Assembly (NCBI GenBank): GCA_964016885.1
Contig: OZ024741.1
Location: forward strand, 35,588,001-35,652,000
Source of the DNA: Eledone cirrhosa
Taxonomy: Eukaryota
Direction of reading: 5' to 3'
Length of the DNA stretch: 64,000 nucleotides
Part shown: positions 12,540 to 64,000 of the stretch, piece after piece
Layout: each line of letters begins with the position of its first letter
Position numbering within the stretch: position 1 is the first letter of the stretch
Notes under the pieces: model-generated
The model's input: only the letters and a program-made list of their open reading frames with translations
The model's database searches: none
Told to the model about the DNA's origin: nothing
Translations under genes and position numbers: made by a program

Positions 12540-12750
12540 AAAGAAATTCCTGAAAGAGGGTTCAGAAGTGAGCAAATTTTAACAATTGGCAACTGGAATG
12601 TTAAAAACCCTTACAGGTAAGGAGCAGGAACTAGTAGAGGTCAGATGTTATCAGCTAGATATAGTCAGGGATCCTCAATAAAGTTCCATAGTTCTGATGC
12701 TGTAGATTTAAATGGAAGATGAAAACTCCGCTATTCAGGTATGGTTCCAG
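12540..12750 (+). mobile_element. APE-endonuclease N-terminal fragment of an RTE-like LINE
   Basis: attggcaactggaatgttaaa..cttacaggtaaggagcaggaactagtagag reads IGNWNVK..LTGKEQELVE, then YQLDIV. Confidence 0.7.
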
Positions 12751-12766
12751 AAATGATTGCTCAGGC

Positions 12767-12890
12767 AGTCTTGTTACTCTAGAGTTTCGTCTGTTTATCA
12801 CTGTTGTCAGACAAAAACTCACTTCGGATGACCCTGTGATAAACAGGCAAAACTCCCAAGTAACAAGACTCACTATTTAGCCTTAATAAA
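12767..12890. mobile_element. Inverted pair of decayed hammerhead-bearing repeats (PLE pseudo-LTR-like)
   Basis: Minus copy 12767-12817: TTGT CTGACAA..CAGAC GAAAC TCTAGA GTA ACAAGACT. Plus copy 12821-12870: CGGATGA CCCTGT GATAA ACAGGC AAAAC TCCCAA GTA ACAAGACT, then AATAAA and (TA)n. Confidence 0.65.
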
Positions 12891-12934
<44 letters not shown>

Positions 12935-12977
12935 AAATAAAACAAGGACGAGTGGTTACTCCATTACGTTTATTGGT

Positions 12978-13064
12978 AGGTGACGCGCGTTTCGCCATTG
13001 ATCAGCTCAAGGTTCGATCTGTATCGATCTAGCCTGACTCTGTAATCAATGGCTCATCAGACCC
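12978..13064 (-). ncRNA. Minimal type I hammerhead ribozyme (HHR-A)
   Basis: Minus strand reads GGGT-CTGATGA-GCCATTGAT...ATCAATGGC-GAAA-CGCGCG-TC/ACCT: intact core, 9-bp stem II base, palindromic stem III, GUC triplet; AATAAA a few nt downstream (12969-12974). Confidence 0.85.
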
Positions 13065-13095
13065 TGGATATATATTATATATATATATAGGTGGT

Positions 13096-13189
13096 GTCCA
13101 GCAGAAGCAAGGGGGACAACCGTCTATGCATTTCAGGCTTGACTGACCTTCATCAGGACAGTCCCTCCCACTGCTTGCAACTGCTGGAC
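13096..13189 (-). ncRNA. Minimal type I hammerhead ribozyme (HHR-B) with long stem I
   Basis: Minus strand reads ACTGTC-CTGATGA-AGGT cagtcaa GCCT-GAAA-TGCA-TA/GACGGT; stem I extends through GGGAC/GTCCC, GCAA/TTGC and GTCCAGCAG/CTGCTGGAC. Confidence 0.82.
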
Positions 13190-13281
13190 TTGAAAATAGT
13201 CGAGAACATATAGTTTTCTCGTCTGTGTAAATGAGGTGATTAATCTCATTTGCATATGAAGCTGCATAAGTTGGCTCAACT

Positions 13282-13643
13282 TATATATATTTATGTGTGT
13301 GTTAAGTAATTCCAAAGACAAAGCAAAGGAAAAAAGAGTGCTCTATGTATAGAACAGAGCTATTTAATTAAAAAGTGAACAACACAAAATATAACTACTC
13401 CATTACCAAAGGTTTCTGGATCCCAGACAATATTGATATACGTCTGGATCCAGACGTATATCAACATTGTCTGGGATCCAGACGTATATCAACATAGTCT
13501 GGGATCCAGAAACCTTTGGTAATGGAGTAGTTATATTTTGTGTTGTTCACTTTTTAATTAAATAGCTCTGTTCTATACATAGAGCACTCTTTTTTCCTTT
13601 GCTTTGTCTTTGGAATTACTTAACACACACATAAATATATATA
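13282..13643. repeat. ~360 bp near-perfect spacerless palindrome (foldback) in TA repeats
   Basis: Arms are reverse complements around GGATCC at 13446-13451; the right arm has a 28-bp tandem duplication (acgtatatcaacat[t/a]gtctgggatccag). Confidence 0.95.
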
Positions 13644-14043
13644 TATTGCACTTCAGGCTATTTATTTTAATATTTTCATTAAAAAAAAGAGGATATTTTC
13701 AATAAGATGGCATTGCCCAGAGAATTAAACACTCAGTTGGTGGCCAACTTATTGAATGAGAATGGTGGTAATTCTGTGCTAGAACTTACTATTCCAAACA
13801 CACTGTTTATATAATTCTTTATTGAAACAACAGGATTTTATTTTTACCCAAATGACAAAAGTAAAACATAAAAGAAATGAATTCTGTATTATTTCTTGAA
13901 AAACTAACAAAAGTAAATTACGACCAAAATTATGAAACTTTAAAATCTTTATATAACATGAAAAAAAAAACAATTCACACAACATTTCACGATTTCTAAA
14001 CTTCTTTCTCCACATGTTCATATGACATGAACAAAGCATTGCT

Positions 14044-16141
14044 TGTGTATGTGTATGTTTTTCTCTATGTACGTCACATGTGTGTGTATGTGTATCTTTT
14101 TCTCTATGTATGTTACATGTGTATGTATGTTTTTCTCTATGTACATCACATGTGTGTGCGCGTGTATGTGTACGTTTTTCTCTATGTACATTATGTATGT
14201 GTGTGTGTATGTGTATGTTTTTCTCTATGTACATCATGTGTGTGTATGTGTATGTTTTTCTCTATGTACATCATGTGCGTGTATGTGTATGTTTTTCTCT
14301 ATGTACATCATGTGTGTGTATGTGAATGTTTTTCTCTATGTACATCATATGTGTGCGTGTGTATGTTTTTCTCTATGTACATCACATATGTGTGTGTATC
14401 ATCATCATCATCATCACCGTTTTACGTCCGTTCTTCCACGCTAGCATGGGTTAGACGGGTTGTCCTGTTGTGGGCAGTGTCTGGTCGGCTGACCATGCCT
14501 TGCTCATACAGGAACTGATCTGGCTTGATTTCTACAGCTGGATGCCCTTCCTAACACCAACCTCATTTACAGTGAGTGCTGGGTGCTTTTTCGTGGCGCC
14601 TACACGTCCACTTTACAGTGTGGGCTGGGTGCTTTTTTGCCGTGGCACCTCCACGACCACCTTGCGGTGGGGGGGGGGCATATTGTTTATATGCTTCAGC
14701 ATGTACCCATGGGAGGTCGGGTACCCTATATTACTGCGTGACGCCAGAAGTCACGGTCGTGTGTCATTGACTTTGAGAGGTGTAGTTGGGTAAGGTCGGC
14801 TTTTATCACCTCATCCCAAGTCATCTTGGGTCTCCCCACTCCGCGGTTTCCATCAACTTCTAGTGCTCTGCACCTTTTTATGCAGCTGTCATCCTTCATA
14901 CGCATCACATGTCCATACCAGCGTAACCGCCTCTCCTGCACGCAGCATTTGATTCCTCTTATGCTCAGTCTCTCTCTCAATTCCTTTATGCTTTGTCGTT
15001 CACGTATATTACTGTTACACATCCATCGGAGCATGCAGGCTTCGTTTCTCTCTAATCTACGTAAGTCTTCCACCTTCAGCGCCCAGGTCTCACTACCATG
15101 CAACATCGCTGTTCGGATACACGCATCATACAGTCTGCCTTTCATTCTGAGGGAGAAGCCTTTTGCAGCTAGCAGTGGTAGTAGTTCCCTAAACTTCTTC
15201 CATCCCGTTCTTACCCTAGTTATTGTACTTTCTGAGCACCCACCTCCGTTGCTAATTCGGTCACCTAGGTAGCAGAAGCTGTCTACTGTTTCTACAGGGC
15301 CCTCCCAGAGATTGGTGGTACTTGTTTCCTGTGGCTGTTTGCTTGCTGTTTCAGCACAGCTGCTGCATGTGAATCCTACATTCTTAATTAAGCTTCCTGA
15401 GATCCCGCTACATCTCTTGTGTACCCATTGTTTGCATTTGGGGCAAAGAATGGAGTTCCTACCTACACCTTTCCTACATACTGAGCAAGGCCATTTCCCT
15501 GAGGGGATCTGGGTTCTGTTTTCTCGTCTACTTATAAGGACCTTAGTCTTTGTCATGTTGACTTTGAGGCCCTTTCTCTCTAGTCCCTGCTTCCAGGTTT
15601 GGAATTTATTCTCTAGTTCTACCATAGATTCAGCTATGAGTGCGAGGTCATCAGCATACAGGAGTTCCCATGGGCATCCGGTCTTAAACTCCTCCGTTAT
15701 TGCCTGCAGGACTATGATGAACAGGAGAGGGCTAAGAACAGAGCCCTGGTGGACCCCAACCTGTACGCTAAATTCCTCGCTATACTCATTGCCAATCCTA
15801 ACTTTGCTGACTGCTCCCCTATACATGGCTTGTACCGCTTTCACAAGCCATTCATCTACTCCTAGTTTTCTAAGAGCCCACCAGATTACTGTGTATGTGT
15901 ATGTTTTTCTCTATGTACGTCACATGCGTGTGTGTATGTGTATGTTTTTCTCTATGTTTGTTGCGTGTGTGTTTTCTCTATGTACGTCACATGTGTATGC
16001 GTATATTTTTCACTATGTACGCCACATGTGTGTGTGTGTGTTTTTCTCTATGTACATCATATGTGTGTGTATGTATGTGTATGTCTTTCTCTATGTACGT
16101 CACGTGTGTGTATGTGTGTATGTTTTTCTCTATGTACGTCA
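14044..16141. repeat. ~30-40 bp minisatellite (tgtatgtttttctctatgtacatca(tg)n) split by the RTE insertion
   Basis: Same unit at 14044-14398 and 15890-16141. Confidence 0.92.
14399..15889 (-). mobile_element. 5'-truncated RTE-clade LINE with uninterrupted RT C-terminal ORF, PHD-like finger, long 3' UTR and (ATG)n tail
   Basis: ORF 14726-15844: GVHQGSVLSPLLF, LYADDL, CSVC..CPKC..HKRC..CSSC, YLG, RLRWYGHVMR, RGVGRPKMTW; inserted into a minisatellite. Confidence 0.93.
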
Positions 16142-24029: not shown

Positions 24030-25995
24030 TAGATGTCAGGTATACTTAGCATGCAGAGAAGCTGAGAGTAGGAGGTTTGCCAATGTTTTGCAATGAGAGG
24101 ATCAGAGGTGTGAAGTGTTCCGCATTGCAAGGCAGTGTGTCAGTGTAAATCAAGATGTTGTTGGAGATAAGTGTGTCCGAAATGATACTGGTACACTTAG
24201 AGTCACTGATGCTCAGAAAAAGGAAGCCTGGAAATGTCATTACAAGAGACTGATGGATGTTGAGAATGAATGGGGGAGAGAAAAACTACTCCCAACAGAC
24301 TCAATAGAGGGACTAGCTATTGAGAATGATGACTATAAGGTCAAAGAGGCAATTAAGGAAATGATAAGACTGCTGGACTGTCAGGGATAGTTGCTGAGAT
24401 GCTGAAGGCATCAGGAGAAGTAGAAACTAAACTGGTTGCATGCATAGTCAATCAAGCTATATATGGTTCAGTCATACCCAAAGACTGGTTTAGCAGTATT
24501 CTTGTAAATTGCTACAAAGATAAAGGGGATGCTCTGCAGAGGAGCAATTATAGGGGCATAAAACTGATGGATCAGGTTATGAAAGTGACAGAAAGAGTGC
24601 TAACACAACTAATTAGAGAAAGAGTCAAATTAGATGAGATGCAGTTTGGTTTTGTGCCTGGGAAGAGTACAACAGATGCCTTCTTCTTAGTGAGACAACT
24701 ACAAGAGATGTTCTTAGAGAAGAATAAGCCATTATATTTAGCTTTTGTTGAAGTAGAGAAGGCCTTTGACAAAGTACCCCGATCTGTCATCAGGTGGTCC
24801 CTAAGGAAACTAGGTGTAGAGGTATGGCTTGTGATGACAGTGCAAGCTATGTACAGAGGACCTGTCAGTAAAGTGAGAGTAGGAATTAGTTTAGTGAGGA
24901 ATTCCAGATACAAGTAAGAATTCATCAGAGTTCGATCCTCAGTCCACTCTTATTCATTATAGTTCTCCAAGCCATAACAGAGGAGTCTAAGACTGGCTGC
25001 CCATGGGAACTTCTCTATGCTGATGATCTGGTACTTATAGCAGAATCAGTAGAGGAGCTAGAGAATAAATTGTGGTTATGGACACAGCAGTTGGAATCAA
25101 GAGGACTGACATTGAACCTAGCTAAGACAAAAGTGTTGATAAGTAGAAAAGAGGACAAAACTCTGTTTCCATCAGGGAAATGGCCATGTTCAATATGTAG
25201 AAAAGGAGTTGGCAAAAATTCTATAGAATGTACACAATGCTGATCTTGGGTACACAAGAGGTGTAGTAGTATAGCAGGCAAACTAACAGGAAGGGAAAAC
25301 TTCATATGTGGTAGATGTTCAGGAAAATTTTATAGTAGAAGTATCAGTGATAGGCACACTTTTCAAATGCAGCCAGGATCTATAGAGGTGGTTGATAGCT
25401 TCTGAATCCTAGGTGATCAGTTTAGCAAGAGAGGAGGATGCTCCGAGGTCATAGTATCTAGAATAAGGACAGGATGGAAGAAATTTAGGGAGATGCTTCC
25501 TCTGTTGACAACGAAGGGTTTCTCCCTACAAATGAAAGGTTGGTTATATGATGCCTGTGTGAGATGCATGATGCTGCATTGTAGTGAGATATCGGAGGCA
25601 ACTGCAGAGGATATGTGATGGCGGAGAGAAATGAAGCAACCATGCTCCGATGGATGTGTAATGTCAATGTAGTTAACGACCAAGCATAGATGAGTTGAGA
25701 GTGAAACTGTAGTGTGCAGGAGAGAAGACTATGTTGGTATGGCCATGTGATTCGCATGGAAGATGACCGCTGGGTAAAGAAATGCCAAGAAATCCCAGTG
25801 GAAGGAAGACGCAGTAGAAGAAGACCACGAAAAACATGGGCGGAGGTGGTGAGAGCTGACCTTAGATTGCTGAACTTTACAGAGGAGATGACGAGGGACC
25901 GTGACGAATGGAGAGATGCTGTGCTGAAGAAGACCCGTCTCACCCTTGCAAGTAGGGAAAAGCAGACATAAAATGGTGATCATGCTGATGATTTC
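24030..25995 (+). mobile_element. Decayed RTE-clade LINE (short 3' UTR subfamily)
   Basis: Frameshifted fragments SNYRGIKL, MQFGFVPGKSTTDA, KAFDKVPR, YADD, PHD-like Cys cluster, RLCWYGHVIRM; ATG-like tail. Confidence 0.92.
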
Positions 25996-26488
25996 CCTGC
26001 TAGCAACAGTGTGGCAGATTTTTATAGACCAAGTCAGTACTGAAGCAGGGCTACTGATCTCCCAGAGAAGCTGATTGTATCATGTAATGTCTGTGTGTGT
26101 AGGTCTTGTAACTTAGTGGATCATGGTTCAACAAAAAAAGAGATTGATAAAATAAGTACCAGATTTGAAAAAAATAAGTACTAGGGTTGATATAGTAGAC
26201 TATCCCGTTAACCTTTAGCACGCTATACATTTTTATAAATTGTTTCCCTTGACACTGCATTATGTATTAAGGGGAGATTACTCTATTGGAAACATAATGC
26301 GTCTATAACGTCCAGAAGATTAAAGCAGAGTCCCAGCATGGCTGCAGTTCATTGACGGAAATCAATAAAATACTAAGAGAGCAGAGAAAAGTGTCTAAGG
26401 AAATTGATGGAGATGTGTGGCAGTAGGAATTATACAGTAATTGTGTATTTGAGTATGTGCGTGTATTAGAGATATTTGTCAAACATAC

Positions 26489-33036: not shown

Positions 33037-34045
33037 TCATCATCATCATCGTTTAACGTCCCTGTTCCACGCTTGCATGGGTTTGGACGGGGGTTTTCCC
33101 ACTTGAGGCAAGAGTGGTTGTCTTGCTCGCATAGGACTGTCTGGCAGGTTTTCTACAGCTGGATGCCCTTCCTAACACCAACCACATTTACAGTGTGGGA
33201 CTGGGAGGTTTTTACCGTGTTGCCTACATGGCCACATTACAGCGTGGACTGTGTGTTTTTTTGTCGTGACACCTACACGATCTCATTTGTTTCGGCCTGG
33301 ATGTTGTGGCACCAACATAACTTTGCATTGAAGGGGGCGGTGTGGATGGGGTGGGACGGGAGTGTATTTTGTTAGAGATGCCTACTGACTAGTAGGTTTT
33401 ACTTTGTATTTAGGTAAGGCGGGTCTTCTCTGTTACTGAGTACCGCCAAAGGTCTCAGTCCAGTGACATTGTCTTGGAGAGGTGTAAGTGTGTGAGGTCG
33501 GAATTTATCAGCTCGTCCCAGGTTTTCCTGGGTCTGCCTACTCCGTGGCTACCATCTATCTTTATTGGCCTGCACTTTGTTATACAGCTGTCGTCTTTCA
33601 TGCGCATCACGTGACCATACCAACGTAGCCTTCTCTCGAGTAAACAACATCTGATCCCTCTTATTTCTAATTTTTTCCTTAGTTCGTTTATGCTTTGCCG
33701 TTCACGTATATTACTATTACACATCCAGCGGAGCATGCAAGCTTCGTTTTTCTCTAGTCTGCGTATATCCTCTGCACACAATGCCCAGGTCTCACTGCCA
33801 TGCAACATTGCTGTTCGTATGCAGGCATCATACAACCTGCCTTTCATTTTTAGGGAGAACCCTTTAGCGGCTAATAGTGGTATAAGCTCTCTGAACTTTT
33901 TCCATCCAGTTCTAACTCTAGCTACTGTACTTTCAGAGCACCCTCCCCCACTGCTGATTTTGTCACCCAGGTAACGGAAGCTGTCCACTATTTCTATAGA
34001 ACCCTCTGCGCAATTGAAAGAGTTAGTATTTTGTGGGCACTTGCT
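33037..34045 (-). mobile_element. 5'-truncated RTE LINE with long 3' UTR
   Basis: ORF 33455-33988 closely similar to 14726-15844; followed by the same type of 3' UTR and (ATG)n tail. Confidence 0.92.
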
Positions 34046-34163
34046 GCTACTTACACATACACAATATATACATACTCATACATATACACACACACACTCA
34101 CACATATATATATAATCTGATAACTTCCACCTCAAAAAAGATAGCCCATGATGAAGTACTTAC

Positions 34164-39789: not shown

Positions 39790-42258
39790 TTTGTTGGTCA
39801 AGTCCATGGTAAGAGAATGAAGTATCTGTTGGTCAAGTCCATGGTAGGAGAGTGAAGTGTCTCTGTTGGTCAAGTCCATGGTAGGAGAGTGAAGTGTGTC
39901 TGTTGGTCAAGTCCATGGTAGGAGAGTGAAGTGTGTCTGTTGGTCAAGTCCATGGTAGGAGAGTGAAGTGTCTCTGTTGGTCAAGTCCATGGTAGGAGAG
40001 TGAAGTGTGTCAGTTGGTCAAGACCATGGCAAATGAGTGAAGTGTGTCTCTCTTGGTCAAGTCCATGGTAGGAGAGTGAAGTGTGTCTGTTGGTCAAGAC
40101 CATGGCAAGAGAGTGAAGTGTGTCTCTCTTGGTCAAGTCCATGGTAGGAGAGTGAAGTGTGTCTGTTGGTCAAGACCATGGCAAGTGAGTGAAGTGTGTC
40201 TCTCTTGGTCAAGTCCATGGTAGGAGAGTGAAGTGTGTCTGTTGGTCAAGACCATGGCAAGAGAGTGAAGTGTGTCTCTCTTGGTCAAGTCCATGGTAGG
40301 AGAGTGAAGTGTCTCTGTTGGTCAAGTCCATGGTAGGAGAGTGAAGTGTGTCTCTGTTGGTCAAGTCCATGGCAGGAGAGTGAAGTGTGTCTCTCTTCGT
40401 CAAGTCCATGGCAACAGAGTGAAGTTTGGCTGTTGGTCAAGTCCATGGCAAGAGAGTGAAGTGTGTCTCTGTTGTTGAAGTCCATGGTAGGAGAGTGAAG
40501 TGTGTCTCTGTTGGTCAAGTCCATGGCAACAGAGGTGAGTGTGTCTCTGTTGGTCAAGTCCATGGTAGGAGAGTGAAGTGTGTCTATTGGTCAAGACGAT
40601 GGCAAGAGAGTGAAGTGTCTCTGTTGGTCAAGTCCATGGTAGGAGAGTGAAGTGTGTCAGTTGGTCAAGACCATGGCAAGTGAGTGAAGTGTGTCTATTG
40701 GTCAAGATCATGGCAAGTGAGTGAAGTGTGTCTCTCTTGGTCAAGTCCATGGTAGGAGAGTGAAGTGTGTCTCTGTTGGTCAAGTCCATGGTAGGAGAGT
40801 GAAGTGTGTCTATTGGTCAAGACCATGGCAAGTGAGTGAAGTGTGTCTCTCTTGGTCAAGTCCATGGTAGGAGAGTGAAGTGTGTCTCTGTTGGTCAAGT
40901 CCATGGTAGGAGAGTGAAGTGTGTCTGTTGGTCAAGACCATGGCAAGTGAGTGAAGTGTGTCTCTCTTGGTCAAGTCCATGGTAGGAGAGTGAAGTGTCT
41001 GTTGGTCAAGTCCATGGCAAGAGAGTGAAGTGTGTCTGTTGGTCAAGACCATGGCAAGAGAGTGAAGTGTGTTTGTTGGTCAAGTCCATGGTAGGAGAGT
41101 GAAGTGTCTCTGTTGGTCAAGTCCATGGTAGGAGAGTGAAGTGTGTCTCTGTTGGTCAAGTCCATGGCAGGAGAGTGAAGTGTGTCTCTCTTCGTCAAGT
41201 CCATGGCAACAGAGTGAAGTTTGGCTGTTGGTCAAGTCCATGGCAAGAGAGTGAAGTGTGTCTCTGTTGTTGAAGTCCATGGTAGGAGAGTGAAGTGTGT
41301 CTCTGTTGGTCAAGTCCATGGCAACAGAGGTGAGAGTGTCTCTGTTGGTCAAGTCCATGGTAGGAGAGTGAAGTGTGTCTATTGGTCAAGACCATGGCAA
41401 GAGAGTGAAGTGTGTCTATTGGTCAAGACCATGGCAAGAGAGAGAAGTGTGTCTGTTGGTCAAGTCCATGGCAAGAGAGTGAAGTGTGTCTCTGTTGGTC
41501 AAGTCCATGGTAGGAGATTGAAGTGTGTCTATTGGTCAAGACCATGGCAAGAGAGTGAAGTGTGTCTGTTGGTCAAGTCCATGGCAAGAGAATGAAGTGT
41601 GTCTCTGTTGGTCAAGTCCAGTCCATGGTAGGAAAGTGAAGTGTGTCTGTTGGTCAAGTTCATGGCAAGAGAGTGAAGTGTGTCTCTGTTGGTCAAGTCC
41701 ATGGTAGGAGAGTGAAGTGTGTCTATTGGTCAAGACCATGGCAAGAGAGTGAAGTGTGTCTGTTGGTCAAGTCCATGGCAAGAGAGTGAAGTGTGTCTCT
41801 GTTGGTCAAGTCCATGGTAGGAGAGTGAAGTGTGTCTATTGGTCAAGACCATGGCAAGAGAGTGAAGTGTGTCTGTTGGTCAAGTCCATGGCAAGAGAGT
41901 GAAGTGTGTCTCTGTTGGTCAAGTCCAGTCCATGGTAGGAAAGTGAAGTGTGTCTGTTGGTCAAGTTCATGGCAAGAGAGTGAAGTGTGTCTCTGTTGGT
42001 CAAGTCCATGGTAGGAGAGTGAAGTGTGTCTATTGGTCAAGACCATGGCAAGAGAGTGAAGTGTGTCTGTTGGTCAAGTCCATGGCAAGAAAGTGAAGTG
42101 TGTCTCTGTTGGTCAAGTCCATGGTAGGAGAGTGAAGTGTGTCTCTGTTGGTCAAGTCCATGGTAGGAAAGTGAAGTGTGTCTGTTGGTCAAGACCATGG
42201 CAATAGAGTGAAGTGTGTCTGTTGGTCAAGTCAATGGTAGGAGAGTGAAGTGTGTCTC
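39790..42258. repeat. 37/39-bp minisatellite (~2.5 kb) with internal block duplications
   Basis: tgttggtcaagtccatggtaggagagtgaagtgtgtc(tc); identical spurious ORFs 795 bp apart (40285/41080) and near-identical ones 307 bp apart (41536/41843). Confidence 0.97.
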
Positions 42259-46249: not shown

Positions 46250-47685
46250 TACAAAACATCCAGCCCACACCGTAAAGTGGTCGTGTAGGTGTCACGACAA
46301 TAAGCACACAGTCCACACTGTAAAGTGGTCGTGTAGGTGTCACGACAACAAGCACACAGTCCACACTGTAAAGTGGTCGTGTAGGTGTCACGACAACAAG
46401 CACACAGTCCACAGTGTAAAGTGGTTGTGTAGGAGACACGACAAAAAGCACACAGTCCACACTGTAAAGTGGTCGTGTAGGTGTCACGACAACAAGCACA
46501 CAGTCCACACTGTAAAGTGGTCGTGTAGGTGTCACGACAAAAAGCACACAGTCCACACTGTAAAGTGGTCGTGTAGGTGTCACGACAACAAGCACACAGT
46601 CCATACTGTAAAGTGGTCGTGTAGGTGTCACGACAACAAGCATACAGTCCATACTGTAAAGTGGTCGTGTAGGTGTCACGACAACAAGCACACAGTCCAC
46701 ACTGTAAAGTGGTCGTGTAGGTGTCACGACAACAAGCACACAGTCCACACTGTAAAGTGGTCGTGTAGGTGTCACGACAACAAGCACACAGTCCACACTG
46801 TAAAGTGGTCGTGTAGGTGTCACGACAAAAAGCACACAGTCCACACTGTAAAGTGGTCGTGTAGGTGTCACGACAACAAGCACACAGTCCATACTGTAAA
46901 GTGGTCGTGTAGGTGTCACGACAACAAGCATACAGTCCATACTGTAAAGTGGTCGTGTAGGTGTCACGACAACAAGCACACAGTCCACACTGTAAAGTGG
47001 TCGTGTAGGTGTCACGACAACAAGCACACAGTCCACACTGTAAAGTGGTCGTGTAGGTGTCACGACAACAAGCACACAGTCCACACTGTAAAGTCGTCGT
47101 GTAGGTGTCACGACAACAAGCATACAGTCCATACTGTAAAGTGGTTGTGTAGGTGTCACGACAACAAGCACACAGTTCACACTGTAAAGTGGTTGTGTAG
47201 GAGACACGACAAAAAGCACACAGTCCACACTGTAAAGTGGTCGTGTAGGTGTCACGACAAAAAGCACACAGTCCACACTGTAAAGTGGTTGTGTAGGTGT
47301 CACGACAACAAGCACACAGTTTACACTGTAAAGTGGTTGTGTAGGAGACACGACAAAAAGCACACAGTCCACACTATAAAGTGGTTGTGTAGGAGACAGG
47401 ACAAAAAGCACACAGTCCACACTGTAAAGTGGTTGTGTAGGAGACACAACAAAAAGCACCCAGTCAACAGTGTAAAGTGGTTGTGTAGGTGTAACGGTAA
47501 AAAGCACCCAGCACACACTGTCAATGTGCTTGGCGTTAGGAAGGGCATCGAGCTGTAGAAAACTAGCCAGAAACAGTCCTATACAAGTGAGACATGGTCA
47601 CCCGACCCAACTTGCCTCAAATGGGACAAACCCGTCTAACAAATGTGTGGAAGATAGAAGTTAAACAAGGATGATGATGATGATA
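46247..47685 (+). repeat. 48-bp tandem array (~26 units) expanded inside an RTE 3' UTR copy
   Basis: Unit cacacagtccacactgtaaagtggtcgtgtaggtgtcacgacaacaag runs to about 47520, then continues into ggaagggcatc...(GAT)n tail. Confidence 0.95.
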
Positions 47686-47836: not shown

Positions 47837-50800
47837 CATACAGTACAGTCTATATACTATACATACAGTGACATTATACAGTACAGTCTATATACTATAC
47901 ATACAGTGACATTATACAGTACAGTCTATATACTATACATACAGTGACATTATACAGTACAGTCTATATACTATACATACAGTGACATTATACAGTACAG
48001 TCTATATACTATACATACAGTGACATTATACAGTACAGTCTATATACTATACATACAGTGACAGTATACAGTACAGTCTATATACTATACATACAGTGAT
48101 ATTATACAGTACAGTCTATATACTATACATAGTGACATTATACAGTACAGTCTATATACTATATATACAGTGACATTATACAGTGCAGTCTATATACTAT
48201 ATATACAGTACAGTCTATATACTATATATACAGTGACATTATACAGTACAGTCTATATACTATACATACAGTGACATTATACAGTACAGTCTATATACTA
48301 TAGATACAGTGACATTATACAATACAGTCTATATACTATACATACAGTGACATTATACAGTACAGTCTATATACTATATATACAGTGACATTATACAGTA
48401 CAGTCTATATACTATATATACAGTGACATTATACAGTACAGTCTATATACTATACATACAGTGACATTATACAGTACAGTCTATATACTATACATACAGT
48501 GGCATTATACAGTACAGTCTATATACTATACATACAGTGACATTATACAGTACAGTCTATATACTATACATACAGTGACATTATACAGTACAGTCTATAT
48601 ACTATACATACAGTGGCATTATACAATACAGTCTATATACTATACATACAGTGACATTATATAGTACAGTCTATATACTATACATACAGTGACATTATAC
48701 AGTACAGTCTATATACTATATATACAGTGACATTATACAGTACAGTCTATATACTATACATACAGTGACATTATACAATACAGTCTATATACTATACATA
48801 CAGTGACATTATACAGTACAGTCTATATACTATACATACAGTGACATTATACAGTACAGTCTATATACTATATATACAGTGACATTATACAGCACAGTCT
48901 ATATACTATACATACAGTGACATTATACAGTACAGTCTATATACTATATATACAGTGACATTATACAGTACAGTCTATATACTATACATACAGTGACATT
49001 ATACAGTACAGTCTATATACTATATATACAGTGACATTATACAGTACAGTCTATATACTATACATACAGTGACATTATACAGTACAGTCTATATACTATA
49101 CATACAGCGACATTATACAGTACAGTCTATCTACTATACATACAGTGACATTATACAGTAGAGTCTATATACTATACATAGTGACATTATACAGTACAGT
49201 CTATATACTATACATACAGTGACATTATACAGTAGTCTATATACTATACATACAGTGGCATTATACAGTACAGTCTATATACTATAGATACAGTGACATT
49301 ATACAGTACAGTCTATATACTATACATACAGTGACATTATACAGTACAGTCTATATACTATACATACAGTGACATTATACAGTACAGTCTATATACTATA
49401 CATACAGTGACATTATACAGTAGAGTCTATATACTATACATACAGTGACATTATACAGTACAGTCTATATACTATACATACAGTGACATTATACAGTACA
49501 GTCTATATACTATACATACAGTGACATTATACAGTACAGTCTATATACTATACATACAGTGATATTATACAGTACAGTCTATATACTATACATAGTGACA
49601 TTATACAGTACAGTCTATATACTATATATACAGTGACATTATACAGTGCAGTCTATATACTATATATACAGTACAGTCTATATACTATATATACAGTGAC
49701 ATTATACAGTACAGTCTATATACTATACATACAGTGACATTATACAGTACAGTCTATATACTATAGATACAGTGACATTATACAATACAGTCTATATACT
49801 ATACATACAGTGACATTATACAGTACAGTCTATATACTATATATACAGTGACATTATACAGTACAGTCTATATACTATATATACAGTGACATTATACAGT
49901 ACAGTCTATATACTATACATACAGTGACATTATACAGTACAGTCTATATACTATACATACAGTGGCATTATACAGTACAGTCTATATACTATACATACAG
50001 TGACATTATACAGTACAGTCTATATACTATACATACAGTGACATTATACAGTACAGTCTATATACTATACATACAGTGGCATTATACAATACAGTCTATA
50101 TACTATACATACAGTGACATTATATAGTACAGTCTATATACTATACATACAGTGACATTATACAGTACAGTCTATATACTATATATACAGTGACATTATA
50201 CAGTACAGTCTATATACTATACATACAGTGACATTATACAATACAGTCTATATACTATACATACAGTGACATTATACAGTACAGTCTATATACTATACAT
50301 ACAGTGACATTATACAGTACAGTCTATATACTATATATACAGTGACATTATACAGCACAGTCTATATACTATACATACAGTGACATTATACAGTACAGTC
50401 TATATACTATATATACAGTGACATTATACAGTACAGTCTATATACTATACATACAGTGACATTATACAGTACAGTCTATATACTATATATACAGTGACAT
50501 TATACAGTACAGTCTATATACTATACATACAGTGACATTATACAGTACAGTCTATATACTATACATACAGCGACATTATACAGTACAGTCTATCTACTAT
50601 ACATACAGTGACATTATACAGTAGAGTCTATATACTATACATAGTGACATTATACAGTACAGTCTATATACTATACATACAGTGACATTATACAGTAGTC
50701 TATATACTATACATACAGTGGCATTATACAGTACAGTCTATATACTATAGATACAGTGACATTATACAGTACAGTCTATATACTATACATACAGTGACAT

Positions 50801-53800
50801 TATACAGTACAGTCTATATACTATACATACAGTGACATTATACAGTACAGTCTATATACTATACATAGTGACATTATACAGTACAGTCTATATACTATAC
50901 ATACAGTGACATTATACAGTACAGTCTATATACTATATATACAGTGACATTATACAGTACAGTCTATATACTATATATACAGTGACATTATACAGTACAG
51001 TCTATATACTATACATACAATGACATTATACAGTACAGTCTATATACTATACATACAGTGACATTATACAGTACAGTCTATATACTATACATACAGTGGC
51101 ATTATACAGTACAGTCTATATACGATACATACAGCGACATTATACAGTACAGTCTATATACTATACATACAGTGACATTATACAGTACAGTCTATATACT
51201 ATATATACAGTGACATTATACAGTACAGTCTATATACTATACATACAGTGACATTATACAGTACAGTCTATATACTATAAATACAGTGACATTATACAGT
51301 ACAGTCTATATACTATACATACAGTGACATTACACAGTACAGTCTATATACTATACATACAGTGACATTATACAGTACAGTCTATATACTATACATACAG
51401 TGACATTATACAGTACAGTCTATATACTATATATACAGTGACATTATACAGTACAGTCTATATACTATACATACAGTGACATTATACAATACAGTCTATA
51501 TACTATACATAGTGACATTATACAGTATAGTCTATATACTATACATACAGTGACATTATACAGTACAGTCTATATACTATATATACAGTGACATTATACA
51601 GCACAGTCTATATACTATACATACAGTGACATTATACAGTACAGTCTATATACTATATATACAGTGACATTATACAGTACAGTCTATATACTATACATAC
51701 AGTGACATTATACAGTACAGTCTATATACTATATATACAGTGACATTATACAGTACAGTCTATATACTATACATACAGTGACATTATACAGTACAGTCTA
51801 TATACTATACATACAGCGACATTATACAGTACAGTCTATCTACTATACATACAGTGACATTATACAGTAGAGTCTATATACTATACATAGTGACATTATA
51901 CAGTACAGTCTATATACTATACATACAGTGACATTATACAGTAGTCTATATACTATACATACAGTGGCATTATACAGTACAGTCTATATACTATAGATAC
52001 AGTGACATTATACAGTACAGTCTATATACTATACATACAGTGACATTATACAGTACAGTTTATATACTATACATACAGTGACATTATACAGTACAGTCTA
52101 TATACTATACATAGTGACATTATACAGTACAGTCTATATACTATACATACAATGACATTATACAGTACAGTCTATATACTATACATACAGTGACATTATA
52201 CAGTACAGTCTATATACTATACATACAGTGGCATTATACAGTACAGTCTATATACGATACATACAGCGACATTATACAGTACAGTCTATATACTATACAT
52301 ACAGTGACATTATACAGTACAGTCTATATACTATATATACAGTGACATTATACAGTACAGTCTATATACTATACATACAGTGACATTATACAGTACAGTC
52401 TATATACTATAAATACAGTGACATTATACAGTACAGTCTATATACTATACATACAGTGACATTACACAGTACAGTCTATATACTATACATACAGTGACAT
52501 TATACAGTACAGTCTATATACTATACATACAGTGACATTATACAGTACAGTCTATATACTATACATACAGTGATATTATACAGTACAGTCTATATACTAT
52601 ACATAGTGACATTATACAGTACAGTCTATATACTATATATACAGTGACATTATACAGTAGTCTATATACTATAGATACAGTGACATTATACAGTACAGTC
52701 TATATACTATACATACAGTGACATTATACAGTACAGTCTATATACTATACATACAGTGACATTATACAGTACAGTCTATATACTATACATACAGTGACAT
52801 TATACAGTACAGTCTATATACTATACATACAGTGACATTATACAGTACAGTCTATATACTATACATAGTGACATTATACAGTACAGTCTATATACTATAT
52901 ATACAGTGACATTATACAGTACAGTCTATATACTATACATAGTGACATTATACAATACAGTCTATATACTATAGATACAGTGACATTATACAGTACAGAC
53001 TATATACTATACATACAGTGACATTATACAGTACAGTCTATATACTATACATACAGTGACATTATACAGTACAGTCTATATACTATACATAGTGACATTA
53101 TACAGTACAGTCTATATACTATACATACAGTGACATTATACAGTACAGTCTATATACTATACATACGGTGACATTATACAGTACAGTCTATATACTATAC
53201 ATAGTGACATTATACAGTACAGTCTATATACTATATATACAGTGACATTATACAGTACAGTCTATATACTATACACAGAGACATTATACAGTACAGTCTA
53301 TATACTATACATACAGTGACATTATACAGTACAGTCTATATACTATACATACAGTGACATTATACAGTACAGTCTATATACTATACATAGTGACATTATA
53401 CAGTACAGTCTATATACTATATATACAGTGACATTATACAGTACAGTCTATATACTATACATACAGAGACATTATACAGTACAGTCTATATACTATACAT
53501 ACAGTGACATTATACAGTACAGTCTATATACTATACATAGTGACATTATACAGTACAGTCTATATACTATACATACAGTGACATTATACAGTACAGTCTA
53601 TATACTATACACACGGTGACATTATACAGTACAGTCTATATACTATACATAGTGACATTATACAGTACAGTCTATATACTATATATACAGTGACATTATA
53701 CAATACAGTCTATATACTATACATAGTGACATTATACAGTACAGTCTATATACTATACATACAGCGACATTATACAGTACAGTCTATATACTATACATAC

Positions 53801-56800
53801 AGTGACATTATACAGTACAGTCTATATACTATACATACAGTGACATTATACAGTACAGTCTATATACTATACATAGTGACATTATACAGTACAGTCTATA
53901 TACTATATATACAGTGAGATTATACAGTACAGTCTATATACTATACATACAGTGACATTATACAGTACAGTCTATATACTATATATACAGTGACATTATA
54001 CAGTACAGTCTATATACTATATATACAGTGACATTATACAGTACAGTCTATATACTATATATACAGTGACATTATACAGTACAGTCTATATACTATAGAT
54101 ACAGTGACATTATACAGTACAGTCTATATACTATACATACAGTGACATTATACAGTACAGTCTATATACTATACATACAGTGACATTATACAGTACAGTC
54201 TATATACTATACATAGTGACATTATACAGTACAGTCTATATACTATACACAGAGACATTATACAGTACAGTATATATACTATACATACAGTGACATTATA
54301 CAGTAGTCTATATACTATACATACAGTGGCATTATACAGTACAGTCTATATACTATAGATACGGTAACATTATACAGTACAGTCTATATACTATACATAC
54401 AGTGACATTATACAGTACAGTCTATATACTATATATACAGTGACATTATACAGTACAGTCTATATACTATACATACAGTGACATTATACAGTACAGTCTA
54501 TATACTATACATACAATGACATTATACAGTACAGTCTATATACTATACATACAGTGACATTATACAGTACAGTCTATATACTATACATACAGTGACATTA
54601 TACAGTACAGTCTATATACTATACATACAGTGGCATTATACAGTACAGTCTATATACTATACATACAGTGACATTATACAGTACAATCTATATACTATAT
54701 ATACAGTGACATTATACAGTACAGTCTATATACTATATATACAGTGACATTATACAGTAGAGTCTATATACTATAGATACAGTGACATTATACAGTACAG
54801 TCTATATACTATACATACAGTGACATTATACAGTACAGTCTATATACTATACATACAGTGACATTATACAGTACAGTCTATATACTATACATAGTGACAT
54901 TATACAGTACAGTCTATATACTATATATACAGTGACATTATACAGTACAGTCTATATACTATACATACAGAGACATTATACAGTACAGTCTATATACTAT
55001 ACATAGTGACATTATACAGTACAGTCTATATACTATATATACAGTGACATTATACAGTACAGTCTATATACTATACATACAGTGACATTATACAGTACAG
55101 TCGATATACTATACACACAGTGACATTATACAGTACAGTCTATATACTATACATAGTGACATTATACAGTACAGTTTATATACAATACATACAGTGACAT
55201 TATACAGTACAGTCTATATACTATACATACAGTGACATTATACAGTACAGTCTATATACTATATATACAGTGACATTATACAGTACAGTCTATATACTAT
55301 ACATACAGTGACATTATACAGTACAGTCTATATACTATACATAGTGACATTATACAGTACAGTCTATATACTATACATACAGTGACATTATACAGTACAG
55401 TCTATATACTATACATACAGTAACATTATACAGTACAGTCTATATACTATACATAGTGACATTATACAGTACAGTCTATATACTATATATACAGTGACAT
55501 TATACAGTACAGTCTATATACTATACATACAGTGACATTATACAGTACAGTCTATATACTATAGATACAGTGACATTATACAGTACTGTCTATATACTAT
55601 ACATACAGTGACATTATACAGTACAGTCTATATACTATACATACAGTGACATTATACAGTACAGTCTATATACTATACATAGTGACATTATACAGTACAG
55701 TCTATATACTATACACAGAGACATTATACAGTACAGTATATATACTATACATACAGTGACATTATACAGTAGTCTATATACTATACATACAGTGGCATTA
55801 TACAGTACAGTCTATATACTATAGATACGGTAACATTATACAGTACAGTCTATATACTATACATACAGTGACATTATACAGTACAGTCTATATACTATAT
55901 ATACAGTGACATTATACAGTACAGTCTATATACTATACATACAGTGACATTATACAGTACAGTCTATATACTATAAATACAGTGACATTATACAGTACAG
56001 TATATATACTATACATACAGTGACATTATACAGTACAGTCTATATACTATACATACAGTGACATTATACAGTACAATCTATATACTATATATACAGTGAC
56101 ATTATACAGTACAGTCTATATACTATACATACAGTGACATTATACAGTACAGTCTATATACTATACATACAGTGACATTATACAGTACAGTCTATATACT
56201 ATACATACAGTGACATTATACAGTACAGTCTATATACTATACATACAGTGACATTATACAGTACAGTCTATATACTATACATACAGTGACATTATACAGT
56301 ACAGTCTATATACTATACATACAGTGACATTATACAGTACAGTCTATATACTATACATACAGTGACATTATACAGTACAGTCTATATACTATACATACAG
56401 TGACATTATACAGTACAGTCTATATACTATACATACAGTGACATTATACAGTACAGTCTATATACTATACATAGTGACATTATACAGTGCAGTCTATATA
56501 CTATATATACAGTGACATTATACAGTACAGTCTATATACTATACATAGTGACATTATACAATACAGTCTATATACTATAGATACAGTGACATTATACAGT
56601 ACAGTCTATATACTATACATACAGTGTCATTATACAGTACAGTCTATATACTATACATACAGTGACATTATACAGTACAGTCTATATACTATACATACAG
56701 TGACATTATACAGTACAGTCTATATACTATACATAGTGACATTATACAGTACAGTCTATATACTATACATACAGTGATATTATACAGTACAGTCTATATA

Positions 56801-59800
56801 CTATACATAGTGACATTATACAGTACAGTCTATATACTATATATACAGTGACATTATACAGTACAGTCTATATACTATACATACAATGACATTATACAGT
56901 ACAGTCTATATACTATACATACAGTGACATTATACAGTACAGTCTATATACTATACATACAGTGGCATTATACAGTACAGTCTATATACGATACATACAG
57001 CGACATTATACAGTACAGTCTATATACTATACATACAGTGACATTATACAGTACAGTCTATATACTATATATACAGTGACATTATACAGTACAGTCTATA
57101 TACTATACATACAGTGACATTATACAGTACAGTCTATATACTATAAATACAGTGACATTATACAGTACAGTCTATATACTATACATACAGTGACATTACA
57201 CAGTACAGTCTATATACTATACATACAGTGACATTATACAGTACAGTCTATATACTATACATACAGTGACATTATACAGTACAGTCTATATACTATATAT
57301 ACAGTGACATTATACAGTACAGTCTATATACTATACATACAGTGACATTATACAATACAGTCTATATACTATACATACAGTGACATTATACAGTACAGTC
57401 TATATACTATACATACAGTGACATTATACAGTACAGTCTATATACTATATATACAGTGACATTATACAGCACAGTCTATATACTATACATACAGTGACAT
57501 TATACAGTACAGTCTATATACTATATATACAGTGACATTATACAGTACAGTCTATATACTATACATACAGTGACATTATACAGTACAGTCTATATACTAT
57601 ATATACAGTGACATTATACAGTACAGTCTATATACTATACATACAGTGACATTATACAGTACAGTCTATATACTATACATACAGCGACATTATACAGTAC
57701 AGTCTATCTACTATACATACAGTGACATTATACAGTAGAGTCTATATACTATACATAGTGACATTATACAGTACAGTCTATATACTATACATACAGTGAC
57801 ATTATACAGTAGTCTATATAATATACATACAGTGGCATTATACAGTACAGTCTATATACTATAGATACAGTGACATTATACAGTACAGTCTATATACTAT
57901 ACATACAGTGACATTATACAGTACAGTCTATATACTATACATACAGTGACATTATACAGTACAGTCTATATACTATACATAGTGACATTATACAGTACAG
58001 TCTATATACTATACATACAGTGACATTATACAGTACAGTCTATATACTATATATACAGTGACATTATACAGTACAGTCTATATACTATATATACAGTGAC
58101 ATTATACAGTACAGTCTATATACTATACATACAATGACATTATACAGTACAGTCTATATACTATACATACAGTGACATTATACAGTACAGTCTATATACT
58201 ATACATACAGTGGCATTATACAGTACAGTCTATATACGATACATACAGCGACATTATACAGTACAGTCTATATACTATACATACAGTGACATTATACAGT
58301 ACAGTCTATATACTATATATACAGTGACATTATACAGTACAGTCTATATACTATACATACAGTGACATTATACAGTACAGTCTATATACTATAAATACAG
58401 TGACATTATACAGTACAGTCTATATACTATACATACAGTGACATTACACAGTACAGTCTATATACTATACATACAGTGACATTATACAGTACAGTCTATA
58501 TACTATACATACAGTGACATTATACAGTACAGTCTATATACTATACATAGTGACATTATACAGTACAGTCTATATACTATATATACAGTGACATTATACA
58601 GTACAGTCTATATACTATACATACAGTGACATTATACAGTACAGTCTATATACTATACATACAGTGACATTATACAGTACAGTCTATATACTATACATAC
58701 AGTGACATTATACAGTACAGTCTATATACTATACATACAGTGACATTATACAGTACAGTCTATATACTATACATACAGTGATATTATACAGTACAGTCTA
58801 TATACTATACATAGTGACATTATACAGTACAGTCTATATACTATATATACAGTGACATTATACAGTAGTCTATATACTATAGATACAGTGACATTATACA
58901 GTACAGTCTATATACTATACATACAGTGACATTATACAGTACAGTCTATATACTATACATACAGTGACATTATACAGTACAGTCTATATACTATACATAC
59001 AGTGACATTATACAGTACAGTCTATATACTATACATACAGTGACATTATACAGTACAGTCTATATACTATACATAGTGACATTATACAGTACAGTCTATA
59101 TACTATATATACAGTGACATTATACAGTACAGTCTATATACTATACATAGTGACATTATACAATACAGTCTATATACTATAGATACAGTGACATTATACA
59201 GTACAGACTATATACTATACATACAGTGACATTATACAGTACAGTCTATATACTATACATAGTGACATTATACAGTACAGTCTATATACTATACATACAG
59301 TGACATTATACAGTACAGTCTATATACTATACATACGGTGACATTATACAGTACAGTCTATATACTATACATAGTGACATTATACAGTACAGTCTATATA
59401 CTATATATACAGTGACATTATACAGTACAGTCTATATACTATACACAGAGACATTATACAGTACAGTCTATATACTATACATACAGTGACATTATACAGT
59501 ACAGTCTATATACTATACATACAGTGACATTATACAGTACAGTCTATATACTATACATAGTGACATTATACAGTACAGTCTATATACTATATATACAGTG
59601 ACATTATACAGTACAGTCTATATACTATACATACAGAGACATTATACAGTACAGTCTATATACTATACATACAGTGACATTATACAGTACAGTCTATATA
59701 CTATACATAGTGACATTATACAGTACAGTCTATATACTATACATACAGTGACATTATACAGTACAGTCTATATACTATACATACGGTGACATTATACAGT

Positions 59801-62800
59801 ACAGTCTATATACTATACATAGTGACATTATACAGTACAGTCTATATACTATATATACAGTGACATTATACAATACAGTCTATATACTATACATAGTGAC
59901 ATTATACAGTACAGTCTATATACTATACATACAGCGACATTATACAGTACAGTCTATATACTATACATACAGTGACATTATACAGTACAGTCTATATACT
60001 ATACATACAGTGACATTATACAGTACAGTCTATATACTATACATAGTGACATTATACAGTACAGTCTATATACTATATATACAGTGAGATTATACAGTAC
60101 AGTCTATATACTATAGATACAGTGACATTATACAGTACAGTCTATATACTATACATACAGTGACATTATACAGTACAGTCTATATACTATACATACAGTG
60201 ACATTATACAGTACAGTCTATATACTATACATAGTGACATTATACAGTACAGTCTATATACTATACACAGAGACATTATACAGTACAGTATATATACTAT
60301 ACATACAGTGACATTATACAGTAGTCTATATACTATACATACAGTGGCATTATACAGTACAGTCTATATACTATAGATACGGTAACATTATACAGTACAG
60401 TCTATATAATATACATACAGTGACATTATACAGTACAGTCTATATACTATATATACAGTGACATTATACAGTACAGTCTATATACTATACATACAGTGAC
60501 ATTATACAGTACAGTCTATATACTATACATACAATGACATTATACAGTACAGTCTATATACTATACATACAGTGACATTATACAGTACAGTCTATATACT
60601 ATACATACAGTGACATTATACAGTACAGTCTATATACTATATATACAGTGACATTATCCAGTACAGTCTATATACTATACATACAGTGACATTATACAGT
60701 ACAGTCTATATACTATACATAGTGACATTATACAGTACAGTTTATATACTATATATACAGTGACATTATACAGTACAGTCTATATACTATACATACAGTG
60801 ACATTATACAGTAGAGTCTATATACTATAGATACAGTGACATTATACAGTACAGTCTATATACTATACATACAGTGGCATTATACAGTACAGTCTATATA
60901 CTATACATACAGCGACATTATACAGTACAGTCTATATACTATACACACAGTGACATCATAGAGTACAGTCTATATACTATATATACAGTGACATTATACA
61001 GTACAGTCTATATACTATACATACAGTGACATTATACAGTACAGTCTATATACTATAAATACAGTGACATTATACAGTACAGTATATATACTATACATAC
61101 AGTGACATTATACAGTACAGTCTATATACTATACATACAGTGACATTATACAGTACAATCTATATACTATATATACAGTGACATTATACAGTACAGTCTA
61201 TATACTATATATACAGTGACATTATACAGTAGAGTCTATATACTATAGATACAGTGACATTATACAGTACAGTCTATATACTATACATACAGTGACATTA
61301 TACAGTACAGTCTATATACTATACATAGTGACATTATACAGTACAGTCTATATACTATATATACAGTGACATTATACAGTACAGTCTATATACTATACAT
61401 ACAGAGACATTATACAGTACAGTCTATATACTATACATAGTGACATTATACAGTACAGTCTATATACTATATATACAGTGACATTATACAGTACAGTCTA
61501 TATACTATACATACAGTGACATTATACAGTACAGTCGATATACTATACACACAGTGACATTATACAGTACAGTCTATATACTATACATAGTGACATTATA
61601 CAGTACAGTTTATATACTATACATACAGTGACATTATACAGTACAGTCTATATACTATACATACAGTGACATTATACAGTACAGTCTATATACTATATAT
61701 ACAGTGACATTATACAGTACAGTCTATATACTATACATACAGTGACATTATACAGTACAGTCTATATACTATACATAGTGACATTATACAGTACAGTCTA
61801 TATACTATACATACAGTGACATTATACAGTACAGTCTATATACTATACATACAGTAACATTATACAGTACAGTCTATATACTATACATAGTGACATTATA
61901 CAGTACAGTCTATATACTATATATACAGTGACATTATACAGTACAGTCTATATACTATACATACAGTGACATTATACAGTACAGTCTATATACTATAGAT
62001 ACAGTGACATTATACAGTACTGTCTATATACTATACATACAGTGACATTATACAGTACAGTCTATATACTATACATACAGTGACATTATACAGTACAGTC
62101 TATATACTATACATAGTGACATTATACAGTACAGTCTATATACTATACACAGAGACATTATACAGTACAGTATATATACTATACATACAGTGACATTATA
62201 CAGTAGTCTATATACTATACATACAGTGGCATTATACAGTACAGTCTATATACTATAGATACGGTAACATTATACAGTACAGTCTATATACTATACATAC
62301 AGTGACATTATACAGTACAGTCTATATACTATATATACAGTGACATTATACAGTACAGTCTATATACTATACATACAGTGACATTATACAGTACAGTCTA
62401 TATACTATAAATACAGTGACATTATACAGTACAGTATATATACTATACATACAGTGACATTATACAGTACAGTCTATATACTATACATACAGTGACATTA
62501 TACAGTACAATCTATATACTATATATACAGTGACATTATACAGTACAGTCTATATACTATACATACAGTGACATTATACAGTACAGTCTATATACTATAC
62601 ATACAGTGACATTATACAGTACAGTCTATATACTATACATACAGTGACATTATACAGTACAGTCTATATACTATACATACAGTGACATTATACAGTACAG
62701 TCTATATACTATACATACAGTGACATTATACAGTACAGTCTATATACTATACATACAGTGACATTATACAGTACAGTCTATATACTATACATACAGTGAC

Positions 62801-64000
62801 ATTATACAGTACAGTCTATATACTATACATACAGTGACATTATACAGTACAGTCTATATACTATACATACAGTGACATTATACAGTACAGTCTATATACT
62901 ATACATAGTGACATTATACAGTGCAGTCTATATACTATATATACAGTGACATTATACAGTACAGTCTATATACTATACATAGTGACATTATACTATACAG
63001 TCTATATACTATAGATACAGTGACATTATACAGTACAGTCTATATACTATACATACAGTGACATTATACAGTACAGTCTATATACTATACATACAGTGAC
63101 ATTATACAGTACAGTCTATATACTATACATACAGTGACATTATACAGTACAGTCTATATACTATACATAGTGACATTATACAGTACAGTCTATATACTAT
63201 ACATACAGTGACATTATACAGTACAGTCTATATACTATACATACGGTGACATTATACAGTACAGACTATATACTATACATAGTGACATTATACAGTACAG
63301 TCTATATACTATATATACAGTGACATTATACAGTACAGTCTATATACTATACATACAGTGACATTATACAGTACAGTCTATATACTATACATACAGTGAT
63401 ATTATACAGTACAGTCTATATACTATACATAGTGACATTATACAGTACAGTCTATATACTATATATACAGTGACATTATACAGTACAGTCTATATACTAT
63501 ACATACAGAGACATTATACAGTACAGTCTATATACTATACATAGTGACATTATACAGTACAGTCTATATACTATATATACAGTGACATTATACAGTACAG
63601 TCTATATACTATACATACAGTGACATTATACAGTACAGTCTATATACTATAGATACAGTGACATTATACAGTACAGTCTATATACTATACATACAGTGAC
63701 ATTATACAGTACAGTCTATATACTATACATACAGTGACATTATACAGTACAGTCTATATACTATACATAGTGACATTATACAGTACAGTCTATATACTAT
63801 ACATACAGTGACATTATACAGTACAGTCTATATACTATAGATACAGTGACATTATACAGTACAGTCTATATACTATACATACAGTGACATTATACAGTAC
63901 AGTCAATATACTATACATAGTGACATTATACAGTACAGTCTATATACTATATATACAGTGACATTATCCAGTACAGTCTATATACTATACATACTGTGAC
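47837..64000. repeat. 38-bp satellite array, >16 kb, running off the window end
   Basis: Consensus atacagtgacattatacagtacagtctatatactatac with 36-bp deletion variants; three TACAGT sub-motifs per unit. Confidence 0.99.

Follow-up and report, generated by a model that had tools for sequence, protein, structure and literature searches.

Minimal hammerhead ribozymes with a palindromic stem III and the need for a dimer partner are described in PMC4209133 and PMC6765202. The hammerheads analysed here resemble the pseudo-LTR hammerheads of Penelope-like elements (PLEs), as characterized by Cervera and de la Pena (2014, PMC4209133), in the long helix II, the short helix I and the palindromic, dimer-requiring stem III. 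As in that account, most copies are single and truncated, and inverted pairs lie 100-700 bp apart. The U3-A8 core variants reported there are also present in the genome of Eledone cirrhosa. In contrast to the examples given in that source, the stem II domain of our family A is unusually long (60 nt), the relatives of families C and D are mismatched at the base of stem II, and no ORF-bearing partner was found here for A, C or D.

PLE copies with 5' truncation, an inverted 5' copy, an optional tail and a microsatellite bias were described for Neptune-clade (and Naiad/Hydra) elements on (TA)n by Craig et al. (2021, PMC8557442), and these copy features are also described in PMC3846280. All four are common to those elements and to the present families, and the Cys linker before the C-terminal GIY-YIG is also found in E. 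cirrhosa ORFs. The tails observed here are apparently longer, about 50-100 nt compared with the 30-40 nt given for the Neptune PLEs in PMC8557442.

The description of animal non-LTR retrozymes (PMC7229834; preprint 10.64898/2026.07.22.740005) is the one that family B fits: an AT-rich, self-paired, head-to-tail 326-nt monomer with a type I hammerhead, co-occurring with PLEs. Unlike the retrozymes of these sources, B consists almost entirely of dispersed copies of 1-1.5 units instead of arrays, and bears PLE-type ends directly (inverted arms and TA targets). According to the same two sources, the mode of transcription and the mobilizing enzyme of animal retrozymes are open. With its PLE-type insertion marks and a candidate U6-box promoter, B brings both questions within reach of tests on a single small element, and this family, not the cluster in which it was met, is the part that matters more. 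A hammerhead repeat with an internal promoter, as predicted for B, is reported for newt satellite 2 (snRNA-type promoter) and for the schistosome hammerhead satellite (pol III promoter) in PMC2220036. The octamer and TATA of B and of a further family, G, resemble the U6 genes of their own genome, whereas the newt promoter reportedly drives pol II. In the mostly open-access literature covered, with Repbase outside its scope, neither the present families nor a U6-like promoter in a retrozyme was found.

Structure of the hammerhead cluster

The window, i.e. the whole 64-kb stretch of DNA analysed, belongs to a 3.0-Gb genome; its sequence is AT-rich, with abundant microsatellites and fragments of LINEs. 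At 12767-13646, units D, A, B and C follow each other end to end, each of them set between (TA)n runs. A (TA)19 run (12894-12931) lies between unit D and the 3' end of unit A, further (TA)n runs separate A from B (13068-13089) and B from C (13282-13290), and a run at 13635-13646 closes the cluster after unit C. A layout of about 900 bp with all these units and their (TA)n spacers had been proposed, and every component was found where it was expected. Genome searches assigned the units to four separate, high-copy dispersed repeat families; the families had rightly been taken as separate, and their number, put at three or more, is four. The genome-wide check of copy number yielded 2,713, 2,172, 1,675 and 787 first-look candidates for A, B, C and D, respectively, so that all four units are high-copy, not single-copy. 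These counts are lower bounds, and 40 candidates were scored per family. The identities of the best full-length relatives were 91-95% for A, 94-96% for B, 91-97% for C and up to 87% for D. In sixty 10-kb stretches at round coordinates A was encountered three times, C and D once each, and B not at all.

The search of both strands with a strict type I hammerhead descriptor gave exactly two matches in the 64-kb window, units A and B. Each of them lies on the minus strand and has a palindromic stem III. They are the two hammerheads that the original prediction had marked as intact-looking. In 200 shuffles of positions 1-47800, the mean was 0.035 descriptor loci and none had a palindromic stem III. 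Both units have the CUGANGA, GAAA and NUH core with three stems and end in stem I, which corresponds to a type I hammerhead. The hammerhead models of Rfam did not match the units at the gathering score or at E ≤ 10; the Rfam matches obtained on them were generic hairpins only. A 600-kb genome sample contained 25 descriptor matches, compared with 0 in 5 shuffles; extrapolated to the whole genome, this is about 10^5 hammerhead motifs. The cluster is a real pile-up of the ends of known kinds of retroelements, its units carry the predicted palindromic stem III hammerheads of the PLE/retrozyme type, and the cluster itself is ordinary for the genome of E. cirrhosa.

Unit A and its family

Unit A (12930-13066, minus strand) comprises an intact minimal type I hammerhead and the short 3' end of the family. 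The descriptor matched the core at 13060-13054 and GAAACGCGCGUC at 12993-12982, both on the minus strand. Stem I has 4 bp, stem II is long and carries a 60-nt stem-loop, and stem III is palindromic (ACGCGCGU); the predicted cleavage site lies after GUC at 12982. A stub, TATATCCAGGG (13062-13072, minus strand), matches the start of the inverted tail of the family, and an AGGG common to stub and unit apparently links the two. A join of the AGGG type is also present in two relatives, L006 and L020. The 3' ends of the family fall into two clusters. The 11 nt shared by A and C, GTAATGGAGTA, were not taken as homology; two additional bases at this position in most A relatives point to a chance match.

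Families A and C run on upstream for several hundred to more than 1,000 nt through microsatellite-rich sequence that resembles the UTRs of PLEs in this genome. The units had been designated small self-cleaving retroelements. Among them, intact hammerheads are confined to A and B, and A and C have the appearance of 3' ends truncated from longer elements, not of small self-contained ones. At one of the 25 loci examined upstream of A (L242, extended as L324), an RT-EN fragment, its UTR and A follow each other on one strand. The sister elements of this locus (L125, L129 and L202) have a terminal hammerhead that differs from A. Since the sisters end differently and the join sits at a poly-C run, the locus looks chimeric: at G000:C7:36.88 Mb, the ORF and UTR of one family are joined to a family A 3' end. 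The comparison of all four units with the 3' ends of 30 GIY-YIG loci resulted in a single match, to A (L127), and that with the 3' ends of 20 long-ORF PLE loci also in one, again to A (L202, on the opposite strand and far away).

Units C and D and their families

Unit C (13291-13634) is a palindrome in which two copies, each cut short within stem II, are arranged head to head. Its 175-nt arms are 98% complementary, with a 28-nt duplication at the centre. Both arms retain GAAAC..GUA (GAAAC-CUUUG-GUA at 13509-13521 on the plus and 13416-13404 on the minus strand) and have lost CUGANGA; unit C is therefore not a ribozyme at this cluster.

Unit D is an inverted pair of decayed hammerheads, consisting of an inverted 5' arm (12767-12815, minus strand) and a direct arm with the 3' tail (12820-12893, plus strand). 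The paired arms, 12767-12801 and 12836-12870, are 86% complementary, and both cores are mutated. In the inverted arm, CUGACAA replaces CUGAUGA at 12810-12804, GAAAC-UCUAGA-GUA is located at 12788-12775, and the 5' strand of stem II is damaged. In the direct arm, CGGAUGA occupies 12825-12831 and AAAAC replaces GAAAC at 12849. The identity of the pair to the relatives listed was 77-87%, and because this is the lowest in the cluster, D is likely its oldest unit.

The cores of the window copies of C and D are thus not intact. Intact core boxes were present in 66 of 102 segments of family C and in 19 of 47 segments of family D. In the majority of C relatives the base of stem II is mismatched at two positions (CC/CA in 40 of 66). 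Among the relatives of both families there are inverted arms with a tail on one side only. The upstream walk from C reached only microsatellite-rich sequence, and an ORF of its own was not found there; no common upstream extension of D was seen among 19 D pattern matches. The ORFs near C in L318 and L319 were considered and rejected as its own, as they appear to belong to other elements.

Family B as a retrozyme-type tandem unit

Unit B (13090-13280, minus strand) represents 191 nt of the 326-nt family monomer, a tandem unit of the retrozyme type, with the hammerhead intact. The descriptor matched the core at 13156-13150 and GAAAUGCAUA at 13134-13125, both on the minus strand. Stem II has 4 bp, stem III is AUGCAU, and stem I is long and bulged; cleavage is predicted after AUA at 13125. 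The 3' tail of the family is missing from the window copy.

Two B hammerheads are 326 nt apart in L043. In 24 of 29 copies the 191-nt block is preceded by the downstream tail of B, and the join between tail and block is spanned by 363 exact matches. The monomer has a GC content of 40% and a fold z-score of -4.2. The monomer size (170-400 nt), GC content below 50%, type I hammerhead and head-to-tail arrangement of non-LTR retrozymes were found in B, which by its structure is a non-LTR retrozyme. A head-to-tail dimer was present at only one of the 29 loci (L043), and no 326-nt arrays were detected in the first 100 of the 363 junction matches. An inverted 5' arm was found in 9 of 29 copies.

Substitutions were counted in an alignment of 38 copies, of which 35 were used and three, with truncated rows, were dropped. 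The non-CpG changes were 12/35 at the free core position 7 and 6/420 at the other core positions, and 2.1% in stems compared with 4.7% in loops; such counts are inflated by shared ancestry. The distribution suggests that the ribozyme is under selection in the B source copies. The stem pairs were 95.5% paired in the 38 copies, and the covariation among these approximately 95% identical sequences was weak and amounted to 3 double-change pairs, compared with 1.2 after shuffling (35/500).

We infer that B is a non-autonomous 326-nt retrozyme whose RNA, tandem or circular, would be freed by two hammerheads and then copied. Alternatively, B could be the pseudo-LTR of an undiscovered autonomous PLE, or a tandem unit spread by duplication at the DNA level. 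The presence of only one true dimer and the PLE-type ends agree with such an origin, as does the homology of Xenopus retrozymes to PLE termini reported in the preprint 10.64898/2026.07.22.740005. However, what lies upstream of the block is B's own tail, and beyond this tail a longer unique extension shared by the copies was not seen. In addition, B had no match in 30 GIY-YIG loci or 20 long-ORF PLE loci, and its copies are dispersed over many contigs. Both of these alternatives are regarded as rather unlikely.

Candidate promoter of families B and G

The octamer-containing box ATGCAAATGAG of unit B (13245-13255, minus strand) is a predicted promoter element of the family, and the same box occurs at -76 of a U6 gene in the same genome. 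At the TATA position (13205-13213, minus strand), the window copy is mutated to TATATG; the box-plus-TATA cassette is intact in 25 of 29 B copies. The octamer lies 94-96 nt upstream of the B core in at least 24 of the 29 copies. In family G, a 482-nt tandem hammerhead unit with an array (L291:455-3365) and many dispersed copies, its commonest distance is 86 nt upstream (8 of 18 copies). The octamer was found in 1 of 138 copies of seven PLE-type families. All nine occurrences of the cassette in the 600-kb sample belonged to G.

The spacing between the box and TATATA, counted by eye, is 42-43 nt in B and G, compared with 46-50 nt in the U6 genes, i.e. 3-8 nt longer in the latter. The candidate promoter regions of B and G aligned better than 300/300 shuffles, the region having been chosen after the motif was seen, and at the sequence level the two families are distantly similar. 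The alignment to one U6 promoter beyond the box was not significant (115/300 and 106/300 shuffles). A PSE was not identified in the candidate promoter region of B and G.

Among the 29 U6 loci examined, 9 had no start match and one had a false one. The sequence ATGC(A/T)AAT(G/T)AG at -76 to -78 together with TATA at -30/-28 was present at nine loci, belonging to one tandem cluster and two dispersed genes. In six copies of the cluster the box is missing from that position; in one of these, L351, it is further upstream, past an inserted stretch. Four U6 loci with TA-rich flanks have no box. The upstream box and TATA of B and G resemble three U6 promoter types of the genome. A tandem cluster of about 30 U6 genes is located at G000:C19:31.78-31.84 Mb, and in some of its genes other sequence replaces the box directly upstream of TATA. 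Promoterless U6 copies whose start directly adjoins upstream TA-rich or (TA)n sequence were observed at L359, L362 and L363; these are possibly U6 retrocopies inserted into TA repeats.

The box and TATA are probably the promoter of family B, from which it would be transcribed. A more tentative proposal, which we hold to be possible but somewhat short of likely, is that B and G are self-transcribing elements combining a U6-type promoter (ATGCAAATKAG + TATA), the ribozyme, a 326-nt circle and insertion into (TA)n by a PLE enzyme. The RNA would then start about 20-25 nt before the hammerhead core, the transcript would run through the next unit, and the two hammerheads would cut out the 326-nt circle. 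If true, B would be a three-part parasite made up of the promoter of an snRNA gene, a ribozyme and a 3' end recognized by PLEs, and its insertion scars would show directly that PLEs mobilize animal retrozymes. The scarcity of T4 runs in B was also considered as a sign of pol III read-through and was set aside as weak, since G has four.

PLE hallmarks and the origin of the cluster

A stretch of (TA)≥3 was found at the 3' end of 24 of 28 A copies and 22 of 29 B copies, compared with 10.6% of random positions, which confirms the proposed preference for TA microsatellites. The (TA)n at the 3' ends of C and D was judged by eye. The copies of the families have variable, truncated 5' ends, frequently a head-to-head inverted 5' arm, an optional tail and two preferred 3' ends.

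The genome yielded 10,594 GIY-YIG candidates, and its ORFs combine RT with a C-terminal GIY-YIG and a Cys linker. With the clade assigned by motifs, the genome is rich in Neptune-type PLEs. An RT/GIY-YIG partner had been noted as absent from the window, which was borne out; such elements are abundant elsewhere in the genome. A strict hammerhead on the ORF strand, at most about 2.6 kb downstream, was present at 6 of 20 long-ORF loci (L203, L204, L205, L208, L215 and L218). At L203, two hammerhead matches 459 nt apart lie downstream of the PLE end and represent another tandem unit of about 459 nt. The 3' ends of L202, L125, L129 and L217 belong to Neptune-type PLE families whose hammerheads have the U3-A8 core variant. 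Concerning the expected link of the units to PLE ORFs, such ORFs proved to be abundant, but none of the families A-D was firmly tied to an ORF of its own in the 30 GIY-YIG loci, the 20 long-ORF loci and the upstream walks. A and C may derive from full PLEs, of which they would be the 3' UTR ends; D may be a comparable, short remnant.

The membership of the units in the families was observed directly, as were the variability of the 5' ends, the inverted 5' arms, the two 3' ends and the 3' (TA)n. The cluster very probably consists of four abutting pieces of four dispersed hammerhead families that were inserted successively into TA repeats by the RT and GIY-YIG activities of PLEs. In this process (TA)n would be nicked by the PLE endonuclease, and reverse transcription, beginning 30-130 nt downstream of the hammerhead, would in most cases end prematurely. 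The inverted arm could arise through a template switch. Every insert would leave (TA)n flanks open to further insertion. The window copies of all four units are likely inert, because neither C nor D has an intact core and a nearby partner for the dimeric stem III is missing for A and B; the stem III pairing of A with B was -3.1 kcal/mol, compared with -13.3 kcal/mol for A with A.

Density of the units and the hotspot question

The original prediction regarded the locus as an insertion hotspot, which the neighbour counts did not substantiate. In 600 kb, 40 units of nine hammerhead families were detected, i.e. one per 15 kb, the nine being those found so far. The 600-kb sample contained 2.4 TA runs per kb. 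Around 101 copies of A-D, with C-related families merged for the co-clustering count, 7 members of other families were observed within 300 nt and 3.7 were expected (P=0.08). At 300-1200 nt the corresponding values were 13 and 11.1 (P=0.33). The unit counts per 10 kb were mildly overdispersed, with a mean of 0.67 and a variance of 1.14. About 7 clusters of four units in 900 bp are expected by chance genome-wide, and about 105 if the true density is doubled. The TA targeting is real, and a special locus is unnecessary.

A special hotspot, or a selected cassette of several ribozymes cutting a host transcript such as the phosphodiesterase pre-mRNA of the same strand, is considered very unlikely. 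It would account for the adjoining of four units within 900 bp, for the mild overdispersion and the excess of neighbours within 300 nt, and for the location of both intact hammerheads, A and B, on the strand of the phosphodiesterase exons at 34.2-22.2 kb. Against it, neither enrichment was significant and chance alone would give 7-105 such clusters, two of the four units are broken, the stem III pairing of A with B is poor, and a phosphodiesterase exon was looked for past about 22.2 kb and not found. A further reading takes the units for DNA transposons of the MITE type, or for hairpin repeats, that duplicate a TA target and contain hammerhead boxes only incidentally. It would explain the TA-flanked palindromes of C and D and the generic hairpins of Rfam, but is hardly credible, being largely refuted by the variable copy ends: arm and centre lengths differ from copy to copy, many copies have no inverted arm, C extends in one direction into a long unique region, and the core boxes, stems and stem III palindromes recur across unrelated families at the frequency given above for the 600-kb sample and its shuffles.

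Other features of the window

Exons of a cyclic-nucleotide phosphodiesterase extend over 34397-22170 on the minus strand, with Pfam PDEase_I matches at 34.2, 30.3 and 26.5 kb and additional exons close to 23.6 and 22.3 kb. The cluster is located about 8.5 kb beyond the last exon found. Fragments of LINE reverse transcriptase were detected at 14726-15910 (minus strand), 24097-26079 and 33455-34075, the first of them also containing a PHD finger by Pfam. Decayed reading frames at 12560-12766, which presumably resemble the start of a LINE endonuclease, end at the left arm of unit D. More than 16 kb of the window (47838-64000) is occupied by a 38-nt satellite, and minisatellites of 37 and 48 nt are located at 39792-42258 and 46261-47521, respectively. 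An Rfam match to mir-1994 above the gathering score, at 1356-1425, overlaps the end of a 36-nt tandem repeat.
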